Assembly: GCA_965223795.1 (NCBI GenBank)
Contig: CBDCXL010000002.1
Span: forward strand, 2,436,030 to 2,500,029
Reading direction: 5' to 3'
Length of the DNA stretch: 64,000 nt
Source: Nitrospinales bacterium
Lineage (GTDB): Bacteria; Nitrospinota; Nitrospinia; Nitrospinales; VA-1
Shown: in pieces, positions 34,291 to 51,567 of the stretch
How the letters are laid out: each line of letters opens with the position of its first letter
How positions within the stretch are numbered: position 1 is the stretch's first letter
Translations under genes and position numbers: made by a program
Notes under the pieces: model-generated
The model's database searches: none
What the model saw: only the letters and a program-made list of their open reading frames with translations
What the model was told of the DNA's origin: nothing

Positions 34291-36783
34291 ATGAACAAAC
34301 CCGAGCTGCCGCACGTGGACGACCCGACCAACGGAAAAAACGCCGAGGCCCTGAAACGGTCCTTCAACACCCACCTCAAATACACGCTGGCCAAAAACAA
34401 GAACCGGGCCACCAAACTCGACCTTTTCAAGAGCCTGGCTCTGGTGGTGCGGGACCATCTGGTGGAGAAATGGATCGACACCAAGAACCGGCAGTACGGT
34501 GAAGACGCGAGGCGGGTGAATTACCTGTCGATGGAATACCTGGTCGGACGGGTGCTGCGTCAGAACATGGCCAACCTCGGCCTGATGGATGAATTGCGTA
34601 AGGCCGTCGCCGAGCTGGGCTACGATTTTGAGGAGCTGGAAGCGATGGAGGTGGAAGCGGGGCTTGGCAACGGCGGCCTGGGACGGCTGGCTTCCTGCTT
34701 TCTGGAGTCGATGGCGACGCTCGATATTCCGGCGAACGGCTACGGCATGCGTTACGAGTTCGGCATCTTCCACCAGCGATTCGCCAACGGCTACCAGGTG
34801 GAGGAGGCGGACAACTGGCTCAGGCTCGGCAACCCCTGGGAGATCCCGCGGCCCGAGCACGTGTATCCGATCAAATTCTACGGCCGGGTGCAGCACGTCA
34901 CGCTGGCGGACGGGACCGAGACCTACGAGTGGGTGGACACGCACGACAACGTGATGGCGATGGCGCACGACATCCTCATTCCGGGATATCAGAACGACAC
35001 GGTGAACAGCCTCCGGCTGTGGGGCGCCCGCTCGATGAACGATTTCGATTTTCAGCATTTCAACGAGGGGGATTACATCCAGGCGGTGAGCGAAAAGCAG
35101 GACACCGAAACGATCTCCAAGGTGCTGTACCCCAACGACAAGTCGATCCAGGGACGCGAGCTGCGTCTCAAGCAGGAATATTTTTTCGTTTCCGCTTCGT
35201 TGCAGGACATCCTCGCGCGCTACAAACGCAGGCATTCCACGTTCGATGCGTTCAGCGACAAGGTCGCGGTGCAGCTCAACGACACGCATCCCTCGCTCGC
35301 CATACCGGAGTTGATGCGCATCTTCGTGGACGAGGAACGCATGACCTGGGACAAAGCCTGGGAGATCACCTGCCGGACGATGGGCTACACCAACCACACG
35401 GTGCTGCCCGAGGCGCTGGAAAAATGGTCGGTCGATCTCATCGGCCACGTCCTGCCGCGGCACCTGCAGATCATCTACGAGATCAACCACCGCTTCATGC
35501 AGCAGGTGGCCGACCGGTTCCCGAACGATCCCGAACGGCTGGCGCGCATGTCGATCATCGAGGAAGGGCCGACGAAGTTCGTGCGCATGCCGCAGCTTTC
35601 GATCGTCGGCAGCCGCGCGGTCAACGGCGTTGCGGCGCTGCACACGGAGATTCTGAAAACCAGCCTGTTCAAGGATTTTGAGGAGATGTATCCCGGCCGC
35701 ATCCACAACATGACCAACGGCATCACGCCGCGGATCTGGCTCAAGGAATGCAACCCCGAATTGTCCCAGCTCATCACCGACACGATCGGCCCTGGCTGGG
35801 TGCGCGACCTCTCGCGGCTCAAGCAGCTTCTGCCCTATGCCAAGGATCTGGCGTTCTGCGAACGCTGGGATCAGGTCAAGGAGAACAACAAGAAACATCT
35901 CGCCGCCTACATCGAAAAAACGCAGGGCATCCGCGTCAATCCGGATTCGATGTTCGACGTGCACATCAAGCGCATCCACGAATACAAGCGGCAGCTCTTG
36001 AACATCCTGCACGTCGTCACGCTGTACACGCGCATCAAGAAGAACCCGGCGGGCGACCACCTGCCGCGCACGGTGATCTTCTCGGGTAAGGCCGCTCCCG
36101 GTTACGCGATGGCCAAGCTCATCATCAAGCTGATCAACAGCGTTGCGAAAACCGTCAACGCCGACGCGGAGGTGGGCGACCGGCTCAAGGTGGTGTTTCT
36201 GCCCAACTACTCGGTGTCGCTGGCGGAAAAAATCATTCCCGCGGCGAACCTGTCGCAGCAGACCTCCACCGCCGGCATGGAGGCTTCCGGCACGGGCAAC
36301 ATGAAGCTTGCGCTCAACGGTGCGCTGACGATCGGCACACTGGACGGCGCCAACATCGAGATCCTCGAGGAAGTGGGCGAGGACAACATCTTCATCTTCG
36401 GGCTCAAGGCCGGCGAGGTGGGCGCCATGCAGGCGAACGGCTACCGGCCCAGGGATCTCTACCTGAAGTACCCGGAACTCAAGCAGGCCCTCGACATGAT
36501 CCAGGAAGGGTTTTTCACGCCCGAGGAACCGCAGGTGTTCCGCCCGCTCATCGAATCGCTGCTCGATCACGGCGACCGCTTCATGGTGCTGGCGGATTTT
36601 CATTCCTACAGCCAGACGCAGCAGAGGATCGAAGAGGAATACCGCGATCCTTCCCTGTGGACGGAAAAATCCATCATCAACGCCGCCAACATGGGGAAAT
36701 TCTCCAGCGACCGCACCATCAGCGATTACGCGCGCGATATCTGGAAGGTGCCGGTCAGGCAGCCCGAGACGTCAGATCCATAG
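34291..36783 (+). CDS. glgP: glycogen/alpha-glucan phosphorylase
   Basis: 830 aa. It contains LGNGGLGRLASCFLESMATL and the PLP site EASGTGNMKLALNGALTIGTLDGANIEI. Confidence 0.97.
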   Translation: MNKPELPHVDDPTNGKNAEALKRSFNTHLKYTLAKNKNRATKLDLFKSLALVVRDHLVEKWIDTKNRQYGEDARRVNYLSMEYLVGRVLRQNMANLGLMDELRKAVAELGYDFEELEAMEVEAGLGNGGLGRLASCFLESMATLDIPANGYGMRYEFGIFHQRFANGYQVEEADNWLRLGNPWEIPRPEHVYPIKFYGRVQHVTLADGTETYEWVDTHDNVMAMAHDILIPGYQNDTVNSLRLWGARSMNDFDFQHFNEGDYIQAVSEKQDTETISKVLYPNDKSIQGRELRLKQEYFFVSASLQDILARYKRRHSTFDAFSDKVAVQLNDTHPSLAIPELMRIFVDEERMTWDKAWEITCRTMGYTNHTVLPEALEKWSVDLIGHVLPRHLQIIYEINHRFMQQVADRFPNDPERLARMSIIEEGPTKFVRMPQLSIVGSRAVNGVAALHTEILKTSLFKDFEEMYPGRIHNMTNGITPRIWLKECNPELSQLITDTIGPGWVRDLSRLKQLLPYAKDLAFCERWDQVKENNKKHLAAYIEKTQGIRVNPDSMFDVHIKRIHEYKRQLLNILHVVTLYTRIKKNPAGDHLPRTVIFSGKAAPGYAMAKLIIKLINSVAKTVNADAEVGDRLKVVFLPNYSVSLAEKIIPAANLSQQTSTAGMEASGTGNMKLALNGALTIGTLDGANIEILEEVGEDNIFIFGLKAGEVGAMQANGYRPRDLYLKYPELKQALDMIQEGFFTPEEPQVFRPLIESLLDHGDRFMVLADFHSYSQTQQRIEEEYRDPSLWTEKSIINAANMGKFSSDRTISDYARDIWKVPVRQPETSDP

Positions 36784-36922: not shown

Positions 36923-37199
36923 GCGCACCGGTCCCTGATATCAATCCGAACGTTTTCGTTCCGTCCGCAGTCTTTTCGCAGGGCGGATTTTTTTGAATAG
37001 CGGATCTGTGAGCCTGGAGTGCTGCCGGGATGCGCTGGCAGCGAACCCGCAATGCCCGCTCCCCAGCGTGGTCATCGGATGTTACAATGTGCGATCGAGG
37101 TTTGCGAGACTGCGTGATGCCTGCGTGCCCGTGCGGGTCCGTATTTTCGGAAGGCGTGAATCTGAGTCATGCGATTGAACTAGAGTGTTTGAGGTTGCG

Positions 37200-37709
37200 A
37201 TGATCGAATGCCCGTGCGGGTCCGTATTTCCCTACACCGACTGCTGCGCGCCGCTGATCCGCGGCGTGAGCCACGCCGACACGGCGGAGGACCTGATGCG
37301 TTCGCGCTACACGGCGTTCACGCAGCAGAACTGGCTGTACCTGCGCGACTCCTGCCACCCGGACGACCGGCCGGAGCTTGCGGAGCTGGAATCGGGAGGC
37401 GGCCTCAAATGGCAGCGCCTGGAGATTCTGGAGAGCAAGGGCGGCGGCCGCGGCGATCAGGAAGGCACGGTGCGGTTTCAGGCGTTCTTCAAAAAGGACG
37501 GCGAGGAGAAGGTCCTGCGCGAGGCCTCGAAGTTCATCCGGGAAGGCGGCCGGTGGTATTATTCTCCCAAAGACTCGCATGCCGAGCCCCAGCGCACCGA
37601 GGCGGCGCCGTCCGGCAAACCCTTCGTGCGGGAGAAAGCCAAGGTGGGGCGCAACGATCCGTGTCCCTGCGGCAGCGGCAAGAAATTCAAGAAATGCTGC
37701 GGCAAATGA
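37200..37709 (+). CDS. ychJ: YchJ-family (UPF0225) protein with SEC-C metal-binding motifs
   Basis: The ATG at 37200 follows GAGGT. The N-terminus is [19 protein letters not shown], followed by MRSRYTAF, and the C-terminal SEC-C motif is [18 protein letters not shown]. Confidence 0.88.
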
Positions 37710-37913: not shown

Positions 37914-38537
37914 TCACGGTGCGTTGAGCAGGGCGACGATGGCCGCTTCGGTTTCCTTGTAGCGGCCTTCGCCGAAATGGGTGAAGCGCACCACGCCGTC
38001 TTTGTCGATCAGGTACTTCGCCGGCCAGTAACGGTTGCGGTAGGCCCGCCACAGTTTGAAGCCGTTGTCCATCGCGATCGGGTACTGCAGTTCGTAATCC
38101 TTCACCGCCTTGACGACGTTTTTGGGAATGCGCTCGAACTTGAACTCGGGCGCGTGCACGCCGATGACCACCAGCCCCTTGTCGGCGTATTTTTTATGCC
38201 ATTTTTTCACGTAGGGCAGGGTGTTGATGCAGTTGATGCAGGAATAGGTCCAGAAGTCGATCAGCACGACCTTGCCGCGCAGTTTCTGCATGGACTCGAT
38301 GGGTTGGGTGTTCAGCCAGTTGGTGAGCCCGCGGAACTCGGGCGCTTCGTACAGGGTGGGCAGCTTCGCCTCGCCCGAAACGTTTGCCGGCGTCACGGAA
38401 AACACCACCGCCAGAATCACCGCCGCCAGCAGGCCGCATTGCAGGACAGGGGTCTTCTCCTGCAATGTTGACAGCAGACCGTTTTGTTTCCCGATCGGTT
38501 TGACGGCGCGTTGCGTTCGATTCCCGGGGCTGTGCAT
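37914..38537 (-). CDS. membrane-anchored thioredoxin-fold thiol:disulfide oxidoreductase (TlpA/DipZ C-terminal-domain-like)
   Basis: 207 aa with one N-terminal helix. It reads GKVVLIDFWTYSCINCINTLPYVKKWHKKYADKGLVVIGVHAPEF, where CINC is the CxxC motif. Confidence 0.85.
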   Translation of the reverse strand: MHSPGNRTQRAVKPIGKQNGLLSTLQEKTPVLQCGLLAAVILAVVFSVTPANVSGEAKLPTLYEAPEFRGLTNWLNTQPIESMQKLRGKVVLIDFWTYSCINCINTLPYVKKWHKKYADKGLVVIGVHAPEFKFERIPKNVVKAVKDYELQYPIAMDNGFKLWRAYRNRYWPAKYLIDKDGVVRFTHFGEGRYKETEAAIVALLNAP

Positions 38538-38935: not shown

Positions 38936-39868
38936 ATGAAAACGCAAATAAAATCGGCGTATCTTGCAAGCGAGGGGTTTGAGGCGGCGCTGGTCCAGGA
39001 GCTTTCCGGCGGGGTGACGGTGCACGGGCGGCTGGTGCTCTCGGACCGCGCGGCGCAGCCGGTCTGCTGGGCGCAGAATGTGTGGCTGAATCCGGAAACG
39101 ATCGCCATCGACTCGATCTCCGACGCGGCGAAAAAGCTGAAGGCGCGGCAGCGCAACTGGTGCCTGTATTCGTATCAACTGCACCGGCGCGCGGCGCTGA
39201 TCGAAGAAAAACTGCCGCACGTTTCGGGAAAGGCGCTGCATTTTCCCGCGCCGCTGCCCGCCTCGCCGCTCGGGTCCTGGACGCTGCTGGACGCGGACAC
39301 GCTGCTGGCGGCGGGCGAGTGCTCCAGCCTGTTTCCCAACGGCGCGCTGCGTTTTGCCGAGGACAAGGATGGGCCGCCCAATCGGGCGTATCTAAAACTG
39401 TGGGAAGCGTGGACGCTGCTTCAGCGCCATCCGGAGCCGGGCGCTTTCTGCATCGACGCGGGCGCGAGCCCCGGCGGCTGGACCTGGGCCGCGGCGAAGC
39501 TGGGCGCGAACGTGCTGAGCGTGGACCGCGCGCCGCTGGATGCATCGCTATCCGGTCTCGACAACGTGACGTTTCGCAAGGGGGACGCGTTTGCGCTCAA
39601 GCCTGAGGATTTTTCCGGCCGGAACGTGGACTGGCTGTTGTGCGATGTGGTGTGCTACCCGGACAAGCTGTGGCAGTGGCTTGAGGCCTGGATCGCATCG
39701 GGGCTGTGCCGCAGCGTCGTGTGCACGATCAAGTTTCAGGGCGAAGGCGAATACGGGATCGTTGAGCGGTTTCAAAGTGTGCCGGGCAGCCGGGTGGTGC
39801 ATCTTTTTCACAACCGGCACGAACTGACGTTTCTGCTGCAGGAAGAGGGAATCACCCGTCCAGGGTGA
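38936..39868 (+). CDS. rlmM: RlmM-like 23S rRNA 2'-O-ribose (C2498) methyltransferase
   Basis: 310 aa. It reads PNRAYLKLWEAW, has the SAM motif CIDAGASPGGWT, then SVDRAPL and WLLCDVVCYPDK...VCTIKFQG, collinear with E. coli RlmM as I remember it. Confidence 0.78.
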   Translation: MKTQIKSAYLASEGFEAALVQELSGGVTVHGRLVLSDRAAQPVCWAQNVWLNPETIAIDSISDAAKKLKARQRNWCLYSYQLHRRAALIEEKLPHVSGKALHFPAPLPASPLGSWTLLDADTLLAAGECSSLFPNGALRFAEDKDGPPNRAYLKLWEAWTLLQRHPEPGAFCIDAGASPGGWTWAAAKLGANVLSVDRAPLDASLSGLDNVTFRKGDAFALKPEDFSGRNVDWLLCDVVCYPDKLWQWLEAWIASGLCRSVVCTIKFQGEGEYGIVERFQSVPGSRVVHLFHNRHELTFLLQEEGITRPG

Positions 39869-41126
39869 GGTCGGTCTTGGGCACGGAGATGCAGGTCAGG
39901 CAGGAGCGCGCTTCCGGCTTGCTGCCCGGTTCGACGACGTAGCTCACCAGGCCGCGCTTGATCGCGGTGAGGCAGGTGCCGCAGTTGCCGGCGCGGCAGC
40001 CGGACTCGAGCTGGATGCCGTTCTCCTCGGCGAAGGCGAGGATGGAGCCGGCGGCGGGGTTCCACTGCAGGGTTTTCTGGGAGCGGGCGAAGGTGACCTT
40101 GAGCGACGATTCGGTCGCGGGGTCGCCAGCTGTCAGTTTCTTGATGGTGACGGAGTTGAACGCTTCGTAGTGAATGTTTTTCTCGGACACCCCCCACTGC
40201 TCCAGATCCTGGCGCAGGGTCTCGATCATTTTCGGCGGCGCGCAGATGTAAAAGTCGAAATTGTTCGAGGGCAGCACCTCTTTCAACAGGCTGCCGGAAA
40301 TATGGCCTTCGTGATGGTAATCCTTCCCTTTCGCATCCTCGGCGCGCGGCCGGCTGTAACAGACGTTCAATTTTACATTGGGGTGGTTGCGGGCCACGTT
40401 TTCCAGGTGCTCTTTCATCATGTGCTCGGAACGGTTGCGCACTCCGAGAAAAAACCAGGTCTCTCTTTTGGACACGGCGCCGCGGGCGTCTTTTTCCGTG
40501 ATGGTGTTGAGCATGCTGAGCACCGGCGTGATGCCGACGCCGCCGCCGATGAGCACCACGGGACTGGTGCTGGCCATGTCGAGGTAGAAATGACCGCTGG
40601 GTGCCTTGACGTCGACGATGTCGCGTTCGTTGAGCATGTCGTGAAAGAAATTGGAGCCGAGCCCCGGCGGCGCGCTGTTGTTTTCGGGCGGCAGCAGGCG
40701 CTTGATGGTGACGCGGTAGTAATCCGGGTGGTTGGGGCTGTCCGACAGGGAATAGCAGCGGATCACCGGCTTCGGGTTGCCGGGAATGTTGAGTTTGAAG
40801 GTCAGGTACTGGCCGGGCTGAAACGGCGGCAGCGGTTTGCCGTCGTGCGGCGACAGGTAGAACGAGGAAACCTGATCGGTTTCCTTGACCTTGAGCACGA
40901 TCTGGAATTTGCGGAATCCGTTCCAGATCACGTTTTCGCTGCGCGAGTCCATGCGGATCCTGTCGACGATCTGGTCCACACGGGCGCGCAGCAGATCCGC
41001 TTCCAGTTCGCTGCTCCGCCGGGAAATTTTAAAGAAACGGAAATTGTTGCTGATCAGCTGGATGAGGTAGGCCATGAGGGCCAGAAGAAACGCGATAGCC
41101 GCAAGACTGATTGCAGCGTTGAGCAA
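39852..41126 (-). CDS. membrane-anchored FNR-like oxidoreductase (FAD-binding FR-type + NAD(P)-binding + C-terminal plant-type 2Fe-2S ferredoxin)
   Basis: 424 aa with an N-terminal helix (AISLAAIAFLLALMAYLI). It has RCYSLSD (RxYS FAD motif), LIGGGVGITPVLSML, and the C-terminal CRAGNCGTC...CLTC. It converges on rlmM with a 17-nt overlap. Confidence 0.9.
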   Translation of the reverse strand: MLNAAISLAAIAFLLALMAYLIQLISNNFRFFKISRRSSELEADLLRARVDQIVDRIRMDSRSENVIWNGFRKFQIVLKVKETDQVSSFYLSPHDGKPLPPFQPGQYLTFKLNIPGNPKPVIRCYSLSDSPNHPDYYRVTIKRLLPPENNSAPPGLGSNFFHDMLNERDIVDVKAPSGHFYLDMASTSPVVLIGGGVGITPVLSMLNTITEKDARGAVSKRETWFFLGVRNRSEHMMKEHLENVARNHPNVKLNVCYSRPRAEDAKGKDYHHEGHISGSLLKEVLPSNNFDFYICAPPKMIETLRQDLEQWGVSEKNIHYEAFNSVTIKKLTAGDPATESSLKVTFARSQKTLQWNPAAGSILAFAEENGIQLESGCRAGNCGTCLTAIKRGLVSYVVEPGSKPEARSCLTCISVPKTDLTLDG

Positions 41127-41205
41127 GGAGCCTCCTTAGAGAGTGTCGGACGCAATGTCACTATATTATAAACAAGGGCGTCGGAGATTCAGAACGAAAA
41201 AGTGA

Positions 41206-41733
41206 CTACGGGTCGTTGCGGGCCAGCAGCATTTCTTTTTTGAAGCCCGGTTTGTGGTGGTAAACGTGACACAGCTGACAGTCTTCTCTCACTTTTCCTT
41301 CCGAATGACATTCGAGGCAGGTTTTGCGTGTGATGGCGGAGAAGTTGCTTTTGAACACGGCCGGGTCGAACGAATCGAACGCGCCGAGGAAATCGGCCTT
41401 GGGATCGAGGACGTGGCAGTTCTTGCAGGTGTCGCCTTTGCCGAGCAGGTCGAGGTGGTTTTTATGGGAATATTTCAGGTAGGCGCGGTTGCGCGCGCCC
41501 TTGTAGCCCCAGTCGATGGTGAGCTGGCCGGGGTTTTCCGCGTCCGGTATGGCGGAAACCGCATGGCACTTGATGCAGCCGCCCACGCCTTCCTTTGAAG
41601 AGAGCATCAGGTCGCGCATCGCCTCGGCGCGTTCGCGCTTGTCGGGATCGGTCTCGGTGGCGGCGACGGTGAGCGCGAACTCGATCCAGCTTTGCGCCAC
41701 CGGGTCCTCATGGCCGGAGGGGGTGTAGCGCAC
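41206..41733 (-). CDS. multihaem cytochrome c, C-terminal part (4 CxxCH) of a frameshift-interrupted decahaem gene
   Basis: It contains CIKCH, CKNCH, CLECH and CQLCH. In this frame the reading frame stays open upstream to 41786 and reads SPAEASFGGWHADLLEVRYTPSG, joining the upstream ORF at the C5 run (plus-strand G-run 41776-41780). Confidence 0.85.
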   Translation of the reverse strand: MRYTPSGHEDPVAQSWIEFALTVAATETDPDKRERAEAMRDLMLSSKEGVGGCIKCHAVSAIPDAENPGQLTIDWGYKGARNRAYLKYSHKNHLDLLGKGDTCKNCHVLDPKADFLGAFDSFDPAVFKSNFSAITRKTCLECHSEGKVREDCQLCHVYHHKPGFKKEMLLARNDP

Positions 41734-43094
41734 TTCCAGAAGGTCCGCGTGCCAGCCGCCGAAACTGGCTTCCGCGGGGGATCGTATTCGACGTTGAGCC
41801 CCCAGGCGCAGGCCGCGCGTTTGAGTACTTCCGGGTTCAATCCCGCGAGCATTTTCTCGGCCACGGGTACGGGAGAATGCTCGTTGATCAGATCCGCGAT
41901 CGGCATCGTGCTTTCGACGGCGAGGTTGAGGATGAGGTCCTGCAGGCTTTCGCTGTAGCTTTCCGGATCGTCCTCGGGCACGTTCAAAAGATAGGCGCTG
42001 ATCAGGCTCGGCGATTCGGTGGAGATGCTGACGAATTCATCATCCTCTTCCTCAATCTTTTCGCCCCGGGTCCGCGGTAACCGGCAGGCTTCCTTCAGCT
42101 CTTCAACATCGATGCGGTTTCTGTCCAGTTCGGGCAGGCGCATGAGGACCAGCTCCTTGCGCGGAATCTGAAATTCGTGGCAGGAGGCGCAGACCCCTTC
42201 GAATTTGTCCGGGCTGACGATCTGCTCTTCCTGGGTCACTTTGTGGCAGACCATGCAGTCCTTGGGCGAGCGGTCTTCGAATTTGGGATCGACAAAGTAT
42301 TTATTCCAGTGCGAGATGTGGTCGAACTTGATCGTGTTCTTGCGGGTGTGCGGGTAGTTCTCCGGAAATTCCGGGTGCCCTTCGGTGAAGCTTTTGAACT
42401 GCTCTTCGTGACAGTGGTTGCACTGGGTGTTGTTGAAGGTGCGGATGGCCAGCCCGGGGCCGCGGTGCTCGCGGTGGCACATCAGGCAGTCGGTTTTCTG
42501 CAGCCGGGGAAACTGTCCGCGGTCGCCGTTGTGGGCGACGAGGGCCGGGCCGCCGAACAGGTGGCAGTCTTCGCATTTGGCGGAGATGTTGCCGGTGTGC
42601 AGCACCGATTTCAGCCACAGCACGGACTTGAGATTGTGGGTGGCGTGGCAGATTTCGCAGCCTTTGTTCTCGGCGAATTTGACGTGCGCGCTCGACATCG
42701 GGCCGGGATTGAAGCTCACGTGCCGGTGCTGCGCCTGGTCCACCACCCAGGAAAGGCAGAGCAAGGACACGATGGTGCCGAATGCGAGCAGGATCAGCCG
42801 GGCCCGGTAGACGCGCAGCGTGGCTTTGGGGACGCAGGGCGGGTGCCGCTGGGAGCACATCCCCTGGGGCAGCGGACCGTCGCCGCAGGGCCCGCCCGCC
42901 GCCTGGGGGCGGCTGCATTCCCAGTGGTTGCCTTTCAGCGTCGGCGCGCATTCGGCGGTGCCGCCGCAGGCGCCGTCGATGTCGGGGCCCTGATGGCAGG
43001 GTTTGAGCCAGAGCGCACCGCGGCCGCAGCGGTAGGGGAAATTCGGCCGTTCGTACTTGCTGCGGTTGTGCGCGAATTTTTTCTCATCCATCAT
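41607..43094 (-). CDS. multihaem cytochrome c, N-terminal part (6 CxxCH) with a Cys-rich cytoplasmic N-terminus and one TM helix; interrupted by a frameshift
   Basis: It contains CEICH, CEDCH, CLMCH, CNHCH, CMVCH and CASCH. The ATG at 43094 overlaps the upstream stop (ATGA). The last roughly 60 residues of the ORF (RKPVSAAGTRTFWKCATPPPAMRTRW...) look out of frame. Confidence 0.85.
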   Translation of the reverse strand: MMDEKKFAHNRSKYERPNFPYRCGRGALWLKPCHQGPDIDGACGGTAECAPTLKGNHWECSRPQAAGGPCGDGPLPQGMCSQRHPPCVPKATLRVYRARLILLAFGTIVSLLCLSWVVDQAQHRHVSFNPGPMSSAHVKFAENKGCEICHATHNLKSVLWLKSVLHTGNISAKCEDCHLFGGPALVAHNGDRGQFPRLQKTDCLMCHREHRGPGLAIRTFNNTQCNHCHEEQFKSFTEGHPEFPENYPHTRKNTIKFDHISHWNKYFVDPKFEDRSPKDCMVCHKVTQEEQIVSPDKFEGVCASCHEFQIPRKELVLMRLPELDRNRIDVEELKEACRLPRTRGEKIEEEDDEFVSISTESPSLISAYLLNVPEDDPESYSESLQDLILNLAVESTMPIADLINEHSPVPVAEKMLAGLNPEVLKRAACAWGLNVEYDPPRKPVSAAGTRTFWKCATPPPAMRTRWRKAGSSSRSPSPPPRPIPTSANAPRRCAT

Positions 43095-43894
43095 AACAGG
43101 TAGACGTGCACCACGACCATGTGCCACAGGATCACGGTCATGAGGGCGGTGGCCAGCGGAATGTGGATCATCAGCCAGCTTTTCAAAACCGTCTGCAGCG
43201 CGTAGTGCAGATCGATCTTGCGCTTAGTATCGGCCAGCGTGAACAGTTTTCTCAGGTAGCCGCGTTCCTGCACGTTGAGAAATTTTTCCAGGGTGGAAAA
43301 CTGCTGCCGCACCCAGAATTCGCCCTTGTGGCCGCCGAACAGGTAGCTGGTGAAAAACCGCGGCCGCTGGAAAAACCAGTGCAGCGATTCCAGGTAATGG
43401 GTCGCCAGGGTGTCGCGCCCGGTCTCGTGGGTGCAGGCGAGCAGTAGGTCCTTGGCCTTTTTACGCAGCTCGCTGATTTCCGCCGGGATGCGTTCGTAGA
43501 TGCACTCGAAGCCGCTCTGGGTCAGGCGGCTCGGGTAGATTTTCTGGATCAGGGTGCCGACGATGCCGGAGAGGGCGGAGGCGTAGAACAAGAACGCCAG
43601 GATCTGTTCGTACAATCCGTCGGGCCACAGCGTGCCGATGTGCAGCCAGAAAATGCCGATCGCCAGGAAGCCGCCCACGGTGTGGATGTTCAGCCAGTTC
43701 GAGGACGGCGAGAGCGGTAAAAACGGCAGCCGCTTGCGCAGATGAAACAGGGCCAGCACGATCAGGATGGAGAACAGGGTCCAGCCGGTGAGCGGCGAGG
43801 TGAACTCAAGCTGCTCATCCGCCTGGCTGGTGCGGTAGGTCATGAACACCAGAAATACGCTTGCGAAGATCCACAGGGCCCAGGATTTCACCAT
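43091..43894 (-). CDS. integral membrane protein with two His-x13-His helices (putative dihaem b-type electron-transfer subunit)
   Basis: ATG at 43894 (MVKSWALW...), AGGA upstream, 267 aa, about 5 TM helices. His71/His85 lie in NIHTVGGFLAIGIFWLHI and His244/His258 in MIHIPLATALMTVILWHM. Confidence 0.75.
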   Translation of the reverse strand: MVKSWALWIFASVFLVFMTYRTSQADEQLEFTSPLTGWTLFSILIVLALFHLRKRLPFLPLSPSSNWLNIHTVGGFLAIGIFWLHIGTLWPDGLYEQILAFLFYASALSGIVGTLIQKIYPSRLTQSGFECIYERIPAEISELRKKAKDLLLACTHETGRDTLATHYLESLHWFFQRPRFFTSYLFGGHKGEFWVRQQFSTLEKFLNVQERGYLRKLFTLADTKRKIDLHYALQTVLKSWLMIHIPLATALMTVILWHMVVVHVYLL

Positions 43895-43902
43895 CGAATG
43901 TC

Positions 43903-45618
43903 CTATCGGTCTATGCTTCCCTCGGGCCGCACGTGACGGAAATCGACCCGCTGCAGAGCTTCGTGAGAGCAGGCCTGCACGCAGGCGGGACCGGACAGTT
44001 GGCCGACGCAAAGATCGCACTTGGTCGCCTTGAGGATCGGCTTGCGCGTTTCGGCGTCGAGGATGGGTTTGCCTTTCTTGTCATTGATCTCCACCATGCG
44101 AATGTTCGAGTAGGGGCAGGAATTGGCGCAGGTCTCGCATCCGATGCAGGTGTCGTCGTTGATCACCACCGTCCCTTCGGAAAGGGTGCGGTGGATGGCT
44201 CCGGTGGGGCAGCCGATCAGGCAAACGGGATCGACACAATGCATGCAGGCGTTGGCCACCATCCAGCGGCCGAAGGTCTTGCCGTGCCGGATGAACCGGG
44301 GGTTGCCCTCATGCGCCGAGGCGCAGGCGTTGACGCAGTCGTCGCAGCGGACGCAGCGGTCCAGGTTGATCAGCATGGCCTGGGTGCCGTTGATGAACCG
44401 CTCCTGCACGGTCCATTCTACCAGAGCTTCGTCCGCCATGGTCTGTTTAAATAGATCGGTCATGCGCCTGTGGTTGCCGGTGGGCCTGTCGCTTGCGTGG
44501 CGGGTTCCGTGATGGATGGTCTCCCAATAGGGAAAGACGTATTTTTCCAGGATCTTCGCCGGGATCTGCAAAACATCTACGTAACCTAAAGCCGAGATCG
44601 ACACCTTGTAGGAGACATCCTTTTCCCCTTTCCAGGCGAGGTACAACTCATCGGCGCCGTAGAAATTGCCCATCCCCAGGTAGGTGAGGGTGTGGTCGCC
44701 GTCTTCCCGCTTGACCGAAACGCGGGCGAACCCGGCCCTGACCAGCAACAGGTCGTCGGGGTAATCGCCCTGCTTGGCGATCAGCGGCTCGTGCTGGATC
44801 CCCGCTTTGCCCATGTTGCGCAGGTTCTTGTAGGAAACCGTCCAGTCGTAGGTGCCGTAGGATTGGAAGCCGGTGTTCTGCGCCACATCGCGGAGCGCTT
44901 CTTCATCGAGATGCTCGAACAGCGAGATCTTGCGCAGAAAGGAAATGAGCGCGTTCTGGCTGTAGCGCTTTTCGATCATGCGGCGCCAGTTCTCGTCGTG
45001 TTTGCGCAGCTCGCGCAGTCCCTGCCAGCGGATTTCCAGCAGCTCGGAGTAGGTTTCGGAGAAGATCGTCGCGGTGCGCGGAATGCGCCCGAGCGCCGCC
45101 AGCTCGCCGAACAGATCGCCGGTTTCCAGGATCGCGGTCTTGTTGGCGTCGAGCACCGCGGGAATGTCCTGTAAAAACACGTGGCTTTGCGTCACGTCGC
45201 CGTTGGTGTGGATCGCCTGCTGGGTGTAGCGGGACGGGTCGCGCACTTCCGGGATCTTGCGGTTGGTGAACAGCTGCGACAGGGCTTCGAGCACGCTTTT
45301 GCGCGGCGTTTTCTTGCGGCCCAGAAGGTCGCTCGGCAGACCGGGAGACAGCACCACGCGCAGCCGGCCGTTGAGCGCGAGAAACGCGGAGTTGCCGTAG
45401 TCGCCCTCGCGGATCACGATGTCGCCGGGCTTGAATCGGACGATGCGGGTGTCGTTTTTGAGGATCCCCTCGAGCGGCGTGTCCGGCGGAAAGCGGTCCT
45501 TCTCGATCGCGGCGATCTCCGGAACCGCGAGCAGTTTCTGCACGTCGTATTCCGTCATTTCAGGACCGAAGGGGTTGTTCCACCGGTCCGGCTGTGAAAT
45601 TTGCGTGACGACTTCCAC
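43903..45618 (-). CDS. fusion protein: two cyclic-nucleotide-binding domains + four-cluster [4Fe-4S] ferredoxin (NrfC/DmsB/HybA-like)
   Basis: 571 aa with no signal peptide. The cNMP signature is GDLFGELAALGRIPRTATI, and there is a second beta-roll region. The Fe-S motifs are CVRCDDCVNAC, CMHCVDPVCLIGCP, CIGCETCANSCP and CDLCVGQLSGPACVQAC. Confidence 0.9.
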   Translation of the reverse strand: MEVVTQISQPDRWNNPFGPEMTEYDVQKLLAVPEIAAIEKDRFPPDTPLEGILKNDTRIVRFKPGDIVIREGDYGNSAFLALNGRLRVVLSPGLPSDLLGRKKTPRKSVLEALSQLFTNRKIPEVRDPSRYTQQAIHTNGDVTQSHVFLQDIPAVLDANKTAILETGDLFGELAALGRIPRTATIFSETYSELLEIRWQGLRELRKHDENWRRMIEKRYSQNALISFLRKISLFEHLDEEALRDVAQNTGFQSYGTYDWTVSYKNLRNMGKAGIQHEPLIAKQGDYPDDLLLVRAGFARVSVKREDGDHTLTYLGMGNFYGADELYLAWKGEKDVSYKVSISALGYVDVLQIPAKILEKYVFPYWETIHHGTRHASDRPTGNHRRMTDLFKQTMADEALVEWTVQERFINGTQAMLINLDRCVRCDDCVNACASAHEGNPRFIRHGKTFGRWMVANACMHCVDPVCLIGCPTGAIHRTLSEGTVVINDDTCIGCETCANSCPYSNIRMVEINDKKGKPILDAETRKPILKATKCDLCVGQLSGPACVQACSHEALQRVDFRHVRPEGSIDR

Positions 45619-45717
45619 GGTCGATGCCGCTCCTGTCAGTTTGGGTAACGATTCAATTTCTGCACCGTCTCAAGGCGCAGAACCACCCCACGCGCCTTGG
45701 CGCCTGTTTCGCTGCGG

Positions 45718-46701
45718 TTATTTGTAGTCGTCCTTTTTCGGCAGCAGCTTGCCCACCGCTTTGGACAAATCCTTGCCCTTGATGGCGGCCACCAGCTTGC
45801 GGGCGTTCTGATCGGTCGGTTTGGCGATCAGGGCCTGGGCCTCGGGTATGCCTTTCAGATGCGCCAGGGCGGCCTTGGCGTCCGCCACGCGCTTCTGCTG
45901 GGCCTGCACGTATTTTTCGTTGTCCGAGCGGGTCAGCACCGAGTTGGCCGACACCAGCTTGGCGGCCTGGCCGATGACGAAAAACTCGGCCAGCTCCTGG
46001 GGCGTCATCTCGGCGTTCACCTTCACGTTCGGCTCGTAGTAGCGGTGGCGCACCGTGCCCTGCGAGTACTTGACGATCTCGAAGTCCGGATTGATGGGAT
46101 GATCGGCCTCCAGCATCTTCGCCAGAAGCTCGGGCTTGAGATCGGGATTGGCCAGCCCGTGGCAGAACATGCAGTTGGCGGCGACGTCGTATTTCATGGT
46201 CGGCCAGATGAGACCGGCTTCGGTGGATTTTTTGATGCGCATCGCCTTGTGCTCGGGCGTCTCCTGATCTTTCTCCACATCTTTGCCGCCGTAATTGTCG
46301 TGAATCTCCAGGTAATCGGAGGAGGGCCCGTGGCAGCTTTCGCAGGACGTCCCCGATTTGGCCTTGGGTTTGTCACCGGCATCCTTCTGCACCATGGTGT
46401 AATGGCACAGGGTGCAGGTTTCGTTCTTCTTCATGTTTTTCGACCCGCCCACCGCCTTGAGGATCTTTTTCGGGGAGGGTTTCTTTTTTTCCTTGTTGTC
46501 CTTGGGTTCCCGGTGCGCGTCGCGGAAGGATTCGAAGTGCCGGGTTCCCTTCCAGACTTTGTATTCGGCTTCATGACATTCCGTGCAGACCTTCACCCCT
46601 TTGAAAAAGGGTTTGGCCGAAGCCGAAGACGCAAACAGGCAAACCAGAACAGAAAATAGCGCGATGAAAGAAAGTCGTGATGGACTCTTGATTGATTTCA
46701 T
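45718..46701 (-). CDS. periplasmic tetrahaem cytochrome c
   Basis: 327 aa with signal peptide ...VLVCLFASSASA. It contains CTECH, CTLCH, CESCH and CMFCH. The first motif context, CTECHEAEYKVWKGTRHF, is typical of cytochrome c554/NrfB-like multihaem proteins. Confidence 0.9.
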   Translation of the reverse strand: MKSIKSPSRLSFIALFSVLVCLFASSASAKPFFKGVKVCTECHEAEYKVWKGTRHFESFRDAHREPKDNKEKKKPSPKKILKAVGGSKNMKKNETCTLCHYTMVQKDAGDKPKAKSGTSCESCHGPSSDYLEIHDNYGGKDVEKDQETPEHKAMRIKKSTEAGLIWPTMKYDVAANCMFCHGLANPDLKPELLAKMLEADHPINPDFEIVKYSQGTVRHRYYEPNVKVNAEMTPQELAEFFVIGQAAKLVSANSVLTRSDNEKYVQAQQKRVADAKAALAHLKGIPEAQALIAKPTDQNARKLVAAIKGKDLSKAVGKLLPKKDDYK

Positions 46702-46919
46702 GATTTCAAGCGATTGAATTGAGCGTTTTTGCGAGTTTTGGGATCAGGATCGTCGTTTGCGGGCGGCCGCCGGGATTCCCCTATGTGCTGCCCAAATAGC
46801 GTTTTCGGTCATTCCGTACTCAAAGTTCCTAAAAAACCGCTGAAATGACAAGTGATTTTTCCAGAAATATAAGCAATTTCAGATTCGTATTTGTACTAAT
46901 TTTGACCCCAGACACAAGA

Positions 46920-46934
46920 GCAGAAAAAGTGCCA
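46920..46934 (-). promoter_or_regulatory. sigma-54-type -24/-12 promoter candidate for the minus-strand cytochrome operon
   Basis: The minus strand reads TGGCAC-TTTTT-CTGCT, with GG and GC separated by 10 nt. It lies about 220 nt upstream of the ATG at 46701. Confidence 0.35.
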
Positions 46935-47923
46935 AAAAGTGGGATACCGGCGAAAAAATTTTATTCGTGGTAAATCAATCGTTTTTAAAAGCGAGTTAAA
47001 ATAATTATAGAAAATTTGTTTAAAATCGAATAAATAAGTATCAAACGTTGTCAATGAATACAATGGATAAATGCTCCCATCACAAAGGCGTAAAGCGATT
47101 CCAGCCGAGCCTTTGACCTTTTTAAAACCCGGAAAGTGAAACAAAACCGATGCCAGCATTCTGAGATCCGTCCTGTGTGTGGACGAGCATACGACGGTGT
47201 TGGCTGGGTCGACAGTCACTGTATGAAATTAAAGACAATCCGGAAATGAATTGCTGAATTTGTGCCACGAAGGATGAAGTCCGCTTCGATTCCCTCGGTT
47301 TTCTTGCCGGCAGCAAAGAAAACACAGTTTGTTCTTTAAATTTCAATGGGTGACCCTATTCTAGCATCCTTTTTCCGTGAAACCTATCCCGCTGGTTGTG
47401 TTTTAGGTCACAGTCCGTTATTGCATTGATTCATTTCGATGCCAGCCGGGCTGCGTTCATAAATTTACATCTATGGTTAATTTATATGGGGGTTTGCAAT
47501 ATTGTGCGTTGATTCGGGGATGAAACTCTATATAAACCAATTATTTGATTTGTAGTTATCGAAAATTTGGGTAAATGAGTATAAATTCGTTATCATCGTT
47601 AAAAATGGGATAATTATCACAAAATTAACGGTGGGAATGGTTCCTGGATTGAGCTAGAATCAGAAAAGTTGATAAATAAAAATAAATTGCTACCTTCAGT
47701 GTAATTTTTCATGGCCTTCAAGTTGATGAATTCTAACTTCAACCTGATGGCTGTGGGGGAAATCTATGTTTTTCGTTCGTGAAGTGTGCGGCTATCCGGA
47801 CAGAAAAAATATTGCTAAGATTTTTAGATTTCTGGTTAAAAAAATATAAATATATTGAAGGTTTGGTTGCCAAGAATTGATGGAAAGGTTTGATAAGCCA
47901 CGACTTTAAATTTCAATTGATTC

Positions 47924-47938
47924 TGGCCTGTGTTTTGC
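47924..47938 (+). promoter_or_regulatory. sigma-54-type -24/-12 promoter candidate for the plus-strand cytochrome/porin pair
   Basis: TGGCCT-GTGTT-TTGCT, with GG (47925-47926) and GC (47937-47938) separated by 10 nt. It lies about 115 nt upstream of the ATG at 48055. Confidence 0.3.
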
Positions 47939-48054
47939 TTTGTTTTCATTATGGATACCGGAAACAAGGTAACGGCGGGGACGGGCGTTTCGCCGGTTTT
48001 GCCTTAAGGTCATAAAACAGAATCAAAGGGATGTTTTTTTGGGGAGAAAGAAAC

Positions 48055-50070
48055 ATGACCGGACAGAACAATACGATGCATTGCAGGTCTTTCATTTTTC
48101 GTGTGGCCAGCGCCGTGTGCCTGGCAGCGTTCGCCAGTGTCGCGCTGATTTCCTGTCAGACTCCGCTGATGGAAGCGGATAAGGACAAAATGGCGAACGC
48201 CGCGCTTGCCGATGGCGAAAAGAAGATGGATGGCGGGAAAATGATGGCGGACAAGATGTCCGACGGTGAAAAAATGGCCGAAGGGTCCGCAGACTCCGGA
48301 AAAATGATGGCGAAAAAGGTGATGGCGGACAAGAAAATGATGAAAGGCGAGGGCGATGCCTGGGAGGACAAGAAGGACGGCGGGAAAAAAGCCGAAACGC
48401 TTGAGGATGCGTTCGCGCAGCATGAAGCGCTGTTCGCGGAAAACCGCTATCCTTCCGCGGCCACCTGCCGGACCTGTCACCCGAAACACTATAAGGAATG
48501 GTCGGTGTCTCAGCATTCCTATGCTCAGATCAGTCCGGTCTACCTGTCTCTCAACAACAAGATCAATCAGTTGACCCAGGGCACCATGGGTGATTTCTGT
48601 CTGCGCTGTCACAGCCCGGTGGGCGCCAACCTGGGAGAATCTCCGTATCAGTCGAACCTCACCCGGCACCCGACCTCGCGCGAGGGCATCACCTGCGTGG
48701 TGTGTCACCGGCTGAACTTGGCCTACAACAAGGTCAGCGGCCGGCTGGCGCTGGAAGAGGGCGACCTGCTCACTCCGGTGTTCGGACCGACGGGCAATAA
48801 AGAGCTTTCCCGCGTTCTCGACAACAAGGACAAATACCGGGTGGTCACCAAGAAGGAAGGCAAGGGCCGCAAGATCCACACCCAGGCCAAGCAGTTCGCC
48901 GGCATCACCACGCCGACGTTCTGCGGTTCCTGTCACGACGTGACGCTGTTCAACGGTTTCCGGCTGGAGGAGGCGTTCAGTGAATACCGGCTGTCTCCCG
49001 CGGCCAAGAAGGGCGTGACCTGTCAGGACTGCCACATGGGCAAGATCCAGGGCATCCCCTCCGGTTACGAGCACGGGCCCGCGGCGGTCGTGGGCGGCAA
49101 GAAAACCAAGCCGCGCAAGATCACCAGCCACTTTTTCGCCGGTCCCGACTACTCCGTCGTGCATCCGGGCATTTTCCCGCACAATTCCGACGCCCAGGAA
49201 ATGGCGACGCTGGAAGAGTGGATCCAGTTCGACTGGAAGGCGGGCTGGGGCACCGATGATTTCGAGGACAACGTTTCCGAGGATCACAAATTCCCCGATC
49301 GCTGGCGTTCGGCGACGGACCGTTACGACGCCAGGGAGATCATCGAGTATCAGCTCAAGCGGCTGGAGCTCATCAAGGAAAAACGGATGGAAGTCCTGCG
49401 CAACGGGTTTCATCTCGGCAGCATCATGACCGAGAAAGCCGATAAGGACGGCATCCGCTTCAAAGTTCAGGTGAAAAACGCCACCGACGGCCACAACGTT
49501 CCCACCGGGTTCACCGGCGAACGGCTTGTGTGGCTGCACGTGATGGTGAAAGACAGCGACGGCACCGTGATCTTCCAGTCCGGCGACCTCGATCCCAACG
49601 GCGATCTGCGGGACCAGGAATCCTCCTACGTGCACAACGGCGAGGCCCCGCTGGATCACCAGCTGTTCAATCTGCAATCGCGATTTGTCGTCGATAACCT
49701 CAGGGGCGGCGAGCGCGAGCGCGTCATTCCCATTCCTTACCCCCAGACCGCGATCCCGTTTGTGCGGCCTTCCATTCAGTCTCTCATCCTGAGTGGCGAG
49801 CCGACTACGGAGCGCAACCACCGGAAAGGCATCGAGCCTTTGGGGCATCGCTGGGCCGAGTACAAGATCGACAAGGAAGCTCTCACCGGCAAGGGCCCCT
49901 ACATGGCTCACATCGAGCTCAAAATGGCTATGGTTCCCGCCAACCTGGTGGAAGCGATCCAGGATGTGGGATTTGATTTTCACATGACCCCCAGAGAAGT
50001 GGGCGACGCGGTGGCCGCAGGTCATGCGGTGCTCTGGGAAAGAGAAGTCGAGATCAGCGTGATCGAATAG
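48055..50070 (+). CDS. lipoprotein pentahaem cytochrome c with Met/Lys-rich linker
   Basis: The ATG at 48055 follows GGGGAGAAAG. The signal ends in the lipobox VALISC. It contains CRTCH, CLRCH, CVVCH, CGSCH and CQDCH. The C-terminal roughly 250 aa carry no haem motif (ATDGHNVPTGFTGERLVWLHV...). Confidence 0.9.
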   Translation: MTGQNNTMHCRSFIFRVASAVCLAAFASVALISCQTPLMEADKDKMANAALADGEKKMDGGKMMADKMSDGEKMAEGSADSGKMMAKKVMADKKMMKGEGDAWEDKKDGGKKAETLEDAFAQHEALFAENRYPSAATCRTCHPKHYKEWSVSQHSYAQISPVYLSLNNKINQLTQGTMGDFCLRCHSPVGANLGESPYQSNLTRHPTSREGITCVVCHRLNLAYNKVSGRLALEEGDLLTPVFGPTGNKELSRVLDNKDKYRVVTKKEGKGRKIHTQAKQFAGITTPTFCGSCHDVTLFNGFRLEEAFSEYRLSPAAKKGVTCQDCHMGKIQGIPSGYEHGPAAVVGGKKTKPRKITSHFFAGPDYSVVHPGIFPHNSDAQEMATLEEWIQFDWKAGWGTDDFEDNVSEDHKFPDRWRSATDRYDAREIIEYQLKRLELIKEKRMEVLRNGFHLGSIMTEKADKDGIRFKVQVKNATDGHNVPTGFTGERLVWLHVMVKDSDGTVIFQSGDLDPNGDLRDQESSYVHNGEAPLDHQLFNLQSRFVVDNLRGGERERVIPIPYPQTAIPFVRPSIQSLILSGEPTTERNHRKGIEPLGHRWAEYKIDKEALTGKGPYMAHIELKMAMVPANLVEAIQDVGFDFHMTPREVGDAVAAGHAVLWEREVEISVIE

Positions 50071-50133: not shown

Positions 50134-51567
50134 ATGAGGTACGCCAAGCTGGAACGGGAATTTCTCTCAAAAACGGTTGCGGCGGCGATCCTGTGGCTCA
50201 TGATCGCCGCTCCGCAGGCGGCCCAGGCGGATAGCTGGTTCTCCGCGATCGGTGAAAAATCCGAGGTCAGCCGGCTTTCGGACGAGCAGATTCCGTTCGC
50301 CGGCGTGGAAGGCCTGCCGCCGCGGCCGGGACTGATCTGGGAGTTCGGCGACAATTTCCTCGACTCGGGGAACCTGTACTCCGGCTTCGAGCTGCCCACC
50401 GGAGCGGTGTGGCAGCCGCGCCTCTGGCTGTTCGCCACGCTGCGCAGCGCGGTGCAGACCTTTGACGACGGCGTCAACGACCGCAGCTCGGAATGGGTCA
50501 ACCGGCTGGATCTGTTCGCCAATCTGCAGCTCACCGGCACGGAAAAGCTGGTGTTCGGCATCCGTCCGTTCGACCGCAACCGTCCCGACCGGTTCTCCGG
50601 CTACCAGTTCGAACCCGACAACGACGACGGTTTTCAGGAAGATCTCAACGCGGACATCCGCACCTTCTTTTTCGAGGGCGATCTGGGAAGCCTGTTTCCC
50701 AATCTGGACCGGCACGGGTTCACGGCGCTCGACTACGGCTTTTCGGTGGGGCGCCAGCCGCTGCTGTTTCAGGAAGGCATCCTGATCAACGACACGGTGG
50801 ACGCGCTCGGGCTGGTGCGCAACAACATCCGCCTGCCGGGGGTGTCCAACCTCCGGGTGTCGTTCGTCTGGGGCTGGAACGAGTTGGGGCGCAGCGACGC
50901 GGTTCTGAGGGACACCACGCAGATGTTCGGGCTGTTCAACTCGGCGGACCTGAACGTCAGCACCGTCAACCTCGACATGGCCTATGTGCGCGACACCAAC
51001 CCCAACGGGCAGGACAGCTTCAACATCGGCCTCTCCTCGACCCAGCGCATCGGCCATTTGAACACCACATTCCGCGTCAACAGCTCGATCGCCGAGGACG
51101 GCGACACGCTGGCCGCTGCGGACGGGACGCTTATATCCGCGGAACTCTCCTGGACTCCCGAATCGTCCGACGACATCGTGTACCTGAACACATTTTATAC
51201 CATTGAGAACTACACCCAGGTGGGAAGGGAACCGGTCGTCGGTGGACCGCTGGGAACGCTGGGCATTCTGTTCGCCTCGCCCAGCATCGGCAACTTCCTC
51301 GCCGAACTCAATCCCTTTGCCAATGAAGTTGCCGGCGGCGCGCTCGGCTACCAGGCTTTCTGGGACAACCACAAGCGCAACCTGATTCTGGAAATCGCCG
51401 GACGCCAGGACACGAGCGGTGACAACAACTCTGATTTCGCTGTCGGTTTTCAGGTGCAGCAGCAGATCCATCAGCGCATTCAGCTGCAGCTCGACGGCCA
51501 CTACGCCATTCAGGAAGGCCGCGACAACGGCTACGGCGGACGCACGGAAATCCTGATCCAGTTCTGA
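50134..51567 (+). CDS. outer-membrane beta-barrel protein (porin-like)
   Basis: 477 aa with signal peptide ...LWLMIAAPQAAQA. It has many short amphipathic strands rich in G, Y, F, N and D, and the C-terminal signature GGRTEILIQF ends in Phe. Confidence 0.8.
   Translation: MRYAKLEREFLSKTVAAAILWLMIAAPQAAQADSWFSAIGEKSEVSRLSDEQIPFAGVEGLPPRPGLIWEFGDNFLDSGNLYSGFELPTGAVWQPRLWLFATLRSAVQTFDDGVNDRSSEWVNRLDLFANLQLTGTEKLVFGIRPFDRNRPDRFSGYQFEPDNDDGFQEDLNADIRTFFFEGDLGSLFPNLDRHGFTALDYGFSVGRQPLLFQEGILINDTVDALGLVRNNIRLPGVSNLRVSFVWGWNELGRSDAVLRDTTQMFGLFNSADLNVSTVNLDMAYVRDTNPNGQDSFNIGLSSTQRIGHLNTTFRVNSSIAEDGDTLAAADGTLISAELSWTPESSDDIVYLNTFYTIENYTQVGREPVVGGPLGTLGILFASPSIGNFLAELNPFANEVAGGALGYQAFWDNHKRNLILEIAGRQDTSGDNNSDFAVGFQVQQQIHQRIQLQLDGHYAIQEGRDNGYGGRTEILIQF

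Follow-up and report, generated by a model that had tools for sequence, protein, structure and literature searches.

The ptd locus of a Nitrospinales bacterium and a predicted NAD(P)H-to-haem electron-transfer chain across its envelope

The closest described system to the locus examined here is the ptd operon of Elbon et al. (bioRxiv 10.1101/2023.11.21.568154), a seven-gene set named ptdABCDEFG and already known in silico and by transcript abundance only. In their account PtdA is a pentahaem protein with a beta-sandwich, PtdB a porin, PtdC an FAD/NAD(P) oxidoreductase, PtdD a periplasmic tetrahaem protein, PtdE a cyclic-nucleotide-binding/4Fe-4S protein, PtdF a ferric-reductase-like membrane protein and PtdG a decahaem protein; its function is called "completely unknown", ptdAB is highly transcribed in an oxygen-deficient zone, and the hosts listed are marine oxygen-deficient-zone Alphaproteobacteria UBA11136, Gammaproteobacteria, Nitrospina/'Nitrospirales' nitrite oxidisers and Planctomycetes. 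The window analysed here, 64,000 nucleotides of a Nitrospinales bacterium (assembly GCA_965223795.1, contig CBDCXL010000002.1, positions 2,436,030 to 2,500,029 of the forward strand), carries a cluster whose seven families match those of this operon one-for-one, by descriptions, domains and gene order. A preliminary description of the window, made from the sequence alone, had presented part of the cluster as a candidate new operon; new it is not, its kind having been described, though not characterised, in the preprint. In the other literature searched the name ptd was not met, and what there is on Nitrospina together with multihaem, decahaem or porin amounts to passing mentions; a 2025 study of metagenome-assembled genomes (MAGs) reported multihaem clusters in Nitrospinaceae OFTM6, OFTM387 and OFTM96 (L005, L016 and L020 in our numbering of loci) and called their role unclear. 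We think it likely that the Nitrospinaceae copy of ptd is a quinone-independent, outward-directed electron-transfer chain across the envelope.

The preliminary description had listed six consecutive minus-strand open reading frames (ORFs), which we re-derived at 45718-46701, 43903-45618, 43091-43894, 41607-43094, 41206-41733 and 39852-41126; these coordinates, and two tight junctions also claimed, agree with the ORF listing and with inspection of the sequence. The ORFs are indeed six but the genes are five, two ORFs being halves of ptdG. The flagged genes do belong to the unit, but it extends beyond them to a divergent plus-strand pair, ptdA and ptdB. The seven genes are as follows.

39852-41126, minus strand: ptdC, membrane-anchored FNR-type reductase with an N-terminal transmembrane (TM) helix, FAD_binding_6, NAD_binding_1 and a C-terminal plant-type [2Fe-2S] Fer2 domain
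41206-43094, minus strand: ptdG, decahaem cytochrome c with an 8-Cys N-terminal domain and one TM helix, split by a 1-nucleotide deletion
43091-43894, minus strand: ptdF, 267-aa integral membrane protein, predicted dihaem cytochrome b
43903-45618, minus strand: ptdE, cytoplasmic protein with two cyclic-nucleotide-binding (CNB)-type domains and a four-[4Fe-4S] ferredoxin module
45718-46701, minus strand: ptdD, Sec-exported periplasmic tetrahaem cytochrome c of the c554 family
48031-50070, plus strand: ptdA, pentahaem lipoprotein cytochrome
50134-51567, plus strand: ptdB, outer-membrane beta-barrel of roughly 18-19 strands, without a Pfam family

Domain assignments and topology proposed earlier agree with profile searches (Pfam/NCBIfam) and with hydropathy: PtdE has neither signal peptide nor hydrophobic segment, PtdF, PtdG and PtdC have TM segments, and PtdD, PtdA and PtdB have signal-like N-termini.

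A tblastn survey covered 42 loci. In 24 of these, from Nitrospinota, Alpha-, Gamma- and Betaproteobacteria and Zixibacteria, the full set of seven is clustered, with the gene order reshuffled; each of the others either breaks off at a contig end or belongs to a defined variant. Most Nitrospinota have the order A-B-D-E-F-G-C, which is also the accession order of Nitrospina SI053_bin49 in Table S7 of Elbon et al. (bioRxiv 10.1101/2023.11.21.568154). The window and its relatives L004 and L005 depart from the described operon in the orientation of ptdAB, which is inverted and runs divergently (B<A< D>E>F>G>C>), and L006, cut within ptdA, has the same inversion. Most proteobacterial loci read D-E-F-G-A-B-C, the Zixibacteria and L040 A-B-C-D-E-F-G, and L027 E-F-G-C-A-B-D. 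A truncated Phycisphaerae contig (L036) holds ptdF-ptdG only, while core modules without ptdA and ptdB within 10 kb occur in Limisphaerales, SAR324 and L041; such porin-less variants do not figure in the description by Elbon et al., nor do the PtdE-less ones described below. The pair was recognised in the window by its counterparts in proteobacterial loci, where two extra genes lie between ptdG and ptdC: PtdA is 38% identical over 523 residues to an operon gene product of L025, and PtdB (477 aa), encoded next to it, matches its L025 operon homologue at E 1e-25. ptdA is co-located with other ptd genes in 28 loci and ptdC in 29, and the module is present in nearly all sampled Nitrospinaceae species.

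Conservation of the gene neighbourhood across genomes is thus very strong and spans several phyla; the same gene set in 42 loci is an arrangement far beyond chance, and so persistent a linkage, through all the reshuffling between phyla, speaks strongly for one functional unit. One might nevertheless draw the unit more narrowly, as ptdE-ptdF-ptdG with or without ptdD, and take ptdC (or ptdAB) for an unrelated neighbour: the gap before ptdC, of 79 nucleotides, contains a TATAAT-like sequence, ptdC changes place from lineage to lineage, and ptdAB lies here on the other strand, 1.3 kb off. Against this, wherever the sequence runs far enough ptdC is found beside the cluster, in several phyla and through five gene orders, proteobacterial loci have ptdAB within the operon, and linkage surviving such shuffling is a classic sign of functional coupling; we consider the narrower unit very improbable.

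The junctions point to a single unit as well. The TAG stop of ptdE is followed after 8 nucleotides by the ptdF ATG at 43894, ptdF and ptdG share an ATGA stop/start overlap at 43091-43094, and an AAGGAGG ribosome-binding site stands 4 nucleotides before the TTG start of ptdC (41126). In one member of a representative protein library (P0209, 843 aa) PtdE and PtdF form a natural fusion in one polypeptide. Together with the tight or overlapping junctions this amounts to physical coupling, which supports a single functional chain. The P0209 fusion could instead be a gene-calling read-through.

Unlike that of the described operon, ptdG of the window is frameshifted. Three-frame translation places ORFs 41607-43094 and 41206-41733, with six and four CxxCH motifs, in different, overlapping frames, and in DNA alignment with L004 and L005 the window gene is one base short at about 41775/41776, within GATCC(C/T)CC-G-GCGG. 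Insertion of one base restores a 629-aa PtdG with ten CxxCH; the 33 other loci all have ptdG as one unbroken ORF, of 600-850 aa, and ten CxxCH are found in 32 of 33 homologues. Either the assembly went wrong here, at a C/G run, or the strain carries a mutation of its own. Programmed frameshifting was considered and rejected, there being no slippery motif and the gene being intact in 33 relatives, including L004, whose PtdG is 87-89% identical.

Every predicted cofactor ligand is invariant in per-family alignments of 26-36 homologues each: four His of PtdF, sixteen Cys of PtdE, 8 + 20 Cys of PtdG and the Fer2 Cys of PtdC. PtdC, at the presumed entry of the chain, matched FAD_binding_6, NAD_binding_1 and Fer2 and scored 253 bits against the reductase part of flavohaemoprotein (Pfam/NCBIfam); its translation carries RCYS and GGGVGITP motifs, residues 1-29 are a hydrophobic segment, and Fer2 residues C377, C382, C385, C409 and C412 are invariant in 26 sequences.

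PtdE combines a sensory and an electron-carrying part. Its cNMP_binding match reached 78 bits against a cut-off of 27.5 (Pfam), and CNB domain 1 keeps a canonical phosphate-binding cassette, FGELAALGRIPRTA, conserved across homologues as FGELAALGR.PRTA (Phe, Gly, Arg and Thr at least 95%; Glu at least 80%) and agreeing with the CAP/PKA-type pattern F-G-E-x-A-x(n)-R-[ST]-A; ligand binding itself is predicted. In CNB-like domain 2 the cassette is degenerate and the Arg-Thr/Ser pair lost. Since one domain has the cassette intact, control of PtdE by a cyclic nucleotide is plausible. The ferredoxin module is of the four-cluster, DmsB/HydN/HycB type, with matched relatives in the PDB (Pfam/NCBIfam), and has sixteen invariant Cys in four ferredoxin-type groups (C422/425/428/432, C458/461/466/470, C491/494/497/501 and C534/537/546/550), from which four [4Fe-4S] clusters are predicted, where Elbon et al. 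give two. PtdE carries neither a Tat nor a Sec signal.

For membrane crossing the candidate is PtdF, in which H71, H85, H244 and H258, forming two H-x13-H motifs, are invariant in 36 sequences. Its AlphaFold2 model (pLDDT 91) has four N-terminal TM helices, a helical cytoplasmic insert (about 127-237) and a long C-terminal TM helix, and in it H71/H85 belong to TM3, H244/H258 to the last TM helix; taking the conserved R53-K54 loop as cytoplasmic, H71 and H244 would lie near the cytoplasmic face and H85 and H258 near the periplasmic face. PtdF thus has the His arrangement of NOX/FRD-type proteins, two pairs, each with a spacing of 12-14 residues, on parallel TM helices, with haem binding a prediction. 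Similarity searches placed it nowhere: the window protein scored above threshold with no Pfam or NCBIfam family, Ferric_reduct (PF01794) included, Foldseek of its model against the PDB gave nothing at E < 1 and no solved NOX, STEAP or MsrQ fold, and the family profile run against all PDB sequences gave only noise. Homologues have weak matches to DUF4405 (21 of 42) and Ni_hydr_CYTB (10 of 42), at a best E of 2.5e-4, and to Ferric_reduct (5 of 42), all of them dihaem cytochrome b families; two carry a precomputed PF14358 match, and window PtdF matches neither DUF4405 nor Ni_hydr_CYTB. A single-sequence search found 65 relatives, mostly Nitrospinaceae (the nearest locus, L004 in a Nitrospinales MAG, has a PtdF 94% identical to that of the window); an exhaustive profile search found 2,656 cluster representatives at 50% identity, so that the family is large yet unannotated.

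PtdG differs from its published description as simply periplasmic. Its first ~90 residues hold two C-x9-C-x9-C-x5/6-C repeats, in which C23, C33, C43, C49, C60, C70, C80 and C87 are invariant, and are followed by a single TM helix (~95-121). Because positive residues lie on the N-terminal side of this helix, the 8-Cys domain, which has no Pfam or PDB match, is predicted to be cytoplasmic and the ten-haem part periplasmic. In a lineage without ptdE, represented by L042 and L043 from two independent metagenome samples and arranged ptdC-ptdD-ptdF-ptdG, PtdG starts straight at the TM anchor, without the 8-Cys domain; in L044, the nearest ptdE-bearing relative, all eight Cys are kept. This suggests that the domain co-varies with PtdE, through a single loss event. 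From the loss of the two together it would follow that the domain probably docks PtdE, or else holds an extra metal site or extends the cluster chain of PtdE. The PtdE-less variant also implies that PtdE is not obligatory for the wire, and by analogy with NOX or Fre-MsrQ, PtdC can there probably feed PtdF directly. L042 has a separate cNMP_binding-patatin gene nearby.

On the periplasmic side, PtdD matched Cytochrome_C554 at 2.3e-13 (Pfam), and its four CxxCH motifs together with H55, H134, H201 and H219 are invariant in 28 sequences. PtdA has five CxxCH motifs invariant in 26 sequences and a lipobox Cys42 in 69%. It matches PDB entry 5ze8, the low-potential pentahaem c552 of Thermochromatium tepidum, at E 2.7e-9, over both the haem region and a C-terminal HxxPTG region, and weakly matches ExtKL and MtrC/MtrF domain II/IV models; a study of cable bacteria grouped c552, ExtKL and GSU2801 in one pentahaem family. 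PtdB, for which no Pfam family and no MtrB_PioB match was found, has 1322 homologues, all unnamed. Its AlphaFold2 model (pLDDT 71) is an all-beta barrel of ~19 strands whose best PDB matches by Foldseek are the 18-strand AlgE, OprD/Occ and MOMP (E 1e-12 to 1e-10), with MtrB not among the matches.

How, then, does the locus compare with better-known electron-transfer systems? The statement that its gene order and domain set lie outside bc1, ACIII, Nrf, Qrc, Mtr, CbcL/ImcH and Dsr/Hmc stood up: models of Mtr-, NrfCD- and CbcL/ImcH-type complexes scored far below their cut-offs, and membership in these was accordingly rejected. The nearest likeness in the inner membrane is to NOX/FRE and Fre-MsrQ, where a cytoplasmic-side FNR-type flavoprotein sends electrons outward through two stacked bis-His b-haems, each His pair having a 13-residue spacing and the two helices that bear them (TM3 and TM5) being parallel. 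PtdF, however, has about five TM helices and a cytoplasmic helical insert, no threshold score with Ferric_reduct and a model that matches no NOX, STEAP or MsrQ structure; Ptd interposes a [2Fe-2S] domain and a four-cluster ferredoxin; and its acceptor is a chain of 19 c-haems rather than O2, Fe(III) or MsrP directly.

With porin-cytochrome conduits (MtrCAB; OmaB/OmbB/OmcB of Geobacter; ExtHIJKL with its pentahaem lipoprotein ExtKL) Ptd shares the pairing of a barrel with a multihaem lipoprotein and the periplasmic multihaem carriers. It differs in that PtdB is of the 18-strand class, MtrB having 26 strands, and in having no MtrA-type insert; decahem_SO and OmcA/MtrC models stayed far below cut-offs. 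Whereas CymA, ImcH and CbcL are quinol dehydrogenases, entry at the inner membrane is here by NAD(P)H, Fe-S and haem b. Hmc, Qrc, ACIII, Dsr and Nrf resemble Ptd in combining multihaem cytochromes with a module of the NrfC/DmsB four-[4Fe-4S] superfamily, but PtdE is cytoplasmic, lacks a Tat signal and is fused to cNMP domains, and the membrane subunit is a small dihaem-b-like protein. No NrfD-family protein was found in the cluster, and NrfCD-type (CISM) equivalog models scored far below cut-offs (Pfam/NCBIfam).

The following path would fit these data. NAD(P)H would reduce the FAD of membrane-tethered PtdC, and electrons would leave by its [2Fe-2S] centre to run along the four [4Fe-4S] clusters of PtdE, the flow probably being set by the N-terminal cyclic-nucleotide-binding domain. 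Two bis-His b-haems of PtdF, one at H71+H244 and the next at H85+H258, would then take them over the membrane and on to the ten c-haems of membrane-anchored PtdG, from which soluble tetrahaem PtdD would shuttle them to the pentahaem lipoprotein PtdA, working with the barrel PtdB. The preliminary description had proposed a complete path from NAD(P)H through Fe-S clusters and b-haems to 14 periplasmic c-haems; the cofactors fit, but the path was not complete, PtdA and PtdB having been missed, and the chain has 19 c-haems.

It had also allowed the reverse, which is bioenergetically implausible. NAD(P)H stands at -320 mV, and for an electron that leaves the negative side of the membrane for the positive one the way is downhill in both redox and electrical terms; inward flow would need a donor far below -320 mV, which is why we prefer the outward direction. 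Multihaem chains are reversible in principle and Nitrospinaceae need low-potential reductant for the reductive tricarboxylic acid cycle, so that uptake of electrons from a donor outside the cell or in the periplasm (Fe(II), nitrite or a cathode) to NAD(P)+ or ferredoxin, in the service of autotrophy, could be imagined. Such transfer through a two-haem wire would oppose the membrane potential, and the cluster offers no proton-coupling subunit of NrfD, Nuo or bc type to drive it. Alphaproteobacteria, Verrucomicrobiota and SAR324 that are presumably heterotrophs have the module too; we give electron uptake very little credence. As an outward chain Ptd would bypass quinones and conserve no energy, and a regulatory domain on the Fe-S subunit is then sensible.

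Where the electrons end is harder to say, and two answers seem to us about equally likely, each no more than tentatively possible. The first, suggested in the preprint (bioRxiv 10.1101/2023.11.21.568154), is a porin-cytochrome conduit, in which PtdA and PtdB would carry electrons across the outer membrane, the acceptor being Fe(III) or Mn(IV) in insoluble or chelated form and the purpose either respiration or the reductive acquisition of iron. The adjacency of barrel and multihaem lipoprotein genes in 28 loci and the ExtKL and MtrC/MtrF resemblances of PtdA argue for it, and the Nitrospinaceae MAG study likewise raised extracellular electron transfer for its clusters. The barrel class fits it poorly: PtdB models as an 18-strand AlgE/OprD-like protein without an MtrB_PioB match, and an 18-strand barrel leaves too little room inside for an MtrA-like decahaem. 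The hosts, moreover, are mostly pelagic, and the core modules of Limisphaerales, SAR324 and L041 manage without PtdA and PtdB within 10 kb.

These same core-only variants fit the second answer, a periplasmic task, in which a solute would enter through PtdB, a relative in structure of substrate-specific channels, and be reduced by PtdA at the expense of NAD(P)H, following the logic of Fre-MsrQ-MsrP; it could be a nitrogen oxide, hydroxylamine, selenite, tellurite, iodate or an oxidant to be detoxified. The preprint puts PtdA in the NrfA COG, PtdC resembles flavohaemoprotein reductase, and the module is found in nitrite oxidisers and in bacteria transcribing nod. PtdA itself looks less like an enzyme: its five haem motifs are all CxxCH with no CxxCK, seven further His conserved in at least 96% of sequences suffice to make all five haems bis-His, and no open catalytic site is evident from sequence. 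Neighbouring genes, too, point to no substrate. The barrel class and the porin-less variants lean us slightly against a classical Mtr-like conduit.

A more specific picture would make Ptd a new class of regulated, quinone-independent bacterial NOX joined to a haem wire. In it, cyclic nucleotide would open the Fe-S gate of PtdE, docked on the 8-Cys domain of PtdG, and NAD(P)H electrons would pass through PtdF, a dihaem membrane protein of a kind not classified before, to the cell surface; pelagic bacteria, the main nitrite oxidisers of the ocean among them, would use them there to acquire iron reductively or for some other reduction, extracellular or periplasmic, of importance in oxygen-deficient zones. 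We think this picture rather unlikely to hold in full.

Several points weigh against an outward chain of the kind proposed. It is from gene content, co-conservation, ligand conservation, predicted topology and fold classes that we infer the cofactors, interactions, electron order, direction and regulation. A dihaem b assignment for PtdF is predicted from four invariant His and weak family matches of its homologues. A nitrite oxidiser would pay a very high price for the NAD(P)H spent; a genuine ptdG frameshift would break the chain in the window strain; ptdAB is divergent here and ptdC set off by its gap; and a cytochrome-in-porin conduit is doubtful for a barrel modelled nearer to 18-strand substrate channels than to 26-strand MtrB.

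Two further features lie between the divergent halves of the cluster.

46702-48030, no strand: AT-rich divergent spacer of 1.3 kb, between the ptdD side and ptdAB
46919-46934, minus strand: candidate sigma-54 (-24/-12) promoter TGGCACTTTTTCTGCT, a consensus match ~218 nucleotides upstream of ptdD

In the 46001-48000 bin the GC content drops to 0.446, the bins on either side having ~0.6. The spacer has patches conserved with L004 and holds one low-complexity 107-aa ORF (46896-47219); an Rfam search of it found no family, and scans for sigma-70 promoters and terminators gave nothing above shuffled expectation. The sigma-54-type motif TGGCAC-N5-CTGCT occurs twice in the window (0.41 expected), at 46919-46934 (minus strand) and 52519-52534 (plus strand), both conserved at orthologous positions in L004 and L005. 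The second lies ~250 nucleotides upstream of a plus-strand gene (52787-53902) for a LuxR/GerE-type regulator with an uncharacterised N-terminal region of ~300 aa, which adjoins ptdB in L004 and L005. As it stays next to ptdB in these relatives, this regulator may control the ptd cluster.

Farther downstream of ptdB are genes for a 954-aa tetratricopeptide-repeat protein with at least 17 repeats (53965-56829, plus strand) and for a second such protein (59446-60669, minus strand). On the other side an FtsJ-like methyltransferase gene (38936-39868, plus strand) converges on ptdC, their 3' ends overlapping by 17 nucleotides; with the genes for a redoxin (37914-38537) and a YchJ/SEC-C protein (37185-37709) it is syntenic in L004-L006 only. 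A glycogen/carbohydrate phosphorylase gene (34291-36783, plus strand; Pfam Phosphorylase, 1117 bits) faces an antisense ORF of 796 aa (34213-36603), which almost certainly encodes nothing; shadow ORFs of this sort are numerous across the window, a consequence of its high GC content.

To the published description the present analysis adds the four clusters of PtdE, the 8-Cys domain of PtdG that co-varies with it, the 18-strand class of the barrel, the lack of a solved relative for PtdF, the PtdE-less and porin-less variants, and the argument for outward flow. The ptd genes are widespread and are carried by key organisms of the marine nitrogen cycle, among them abundant bacteria of oxygen-deficient zones. 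If they do export NAD(P)H electrons to the envelope, they would constitute an unrecognised electron sink, or tool, in the organisms dominant in marine nitrite oxidation and nitrogen loss.

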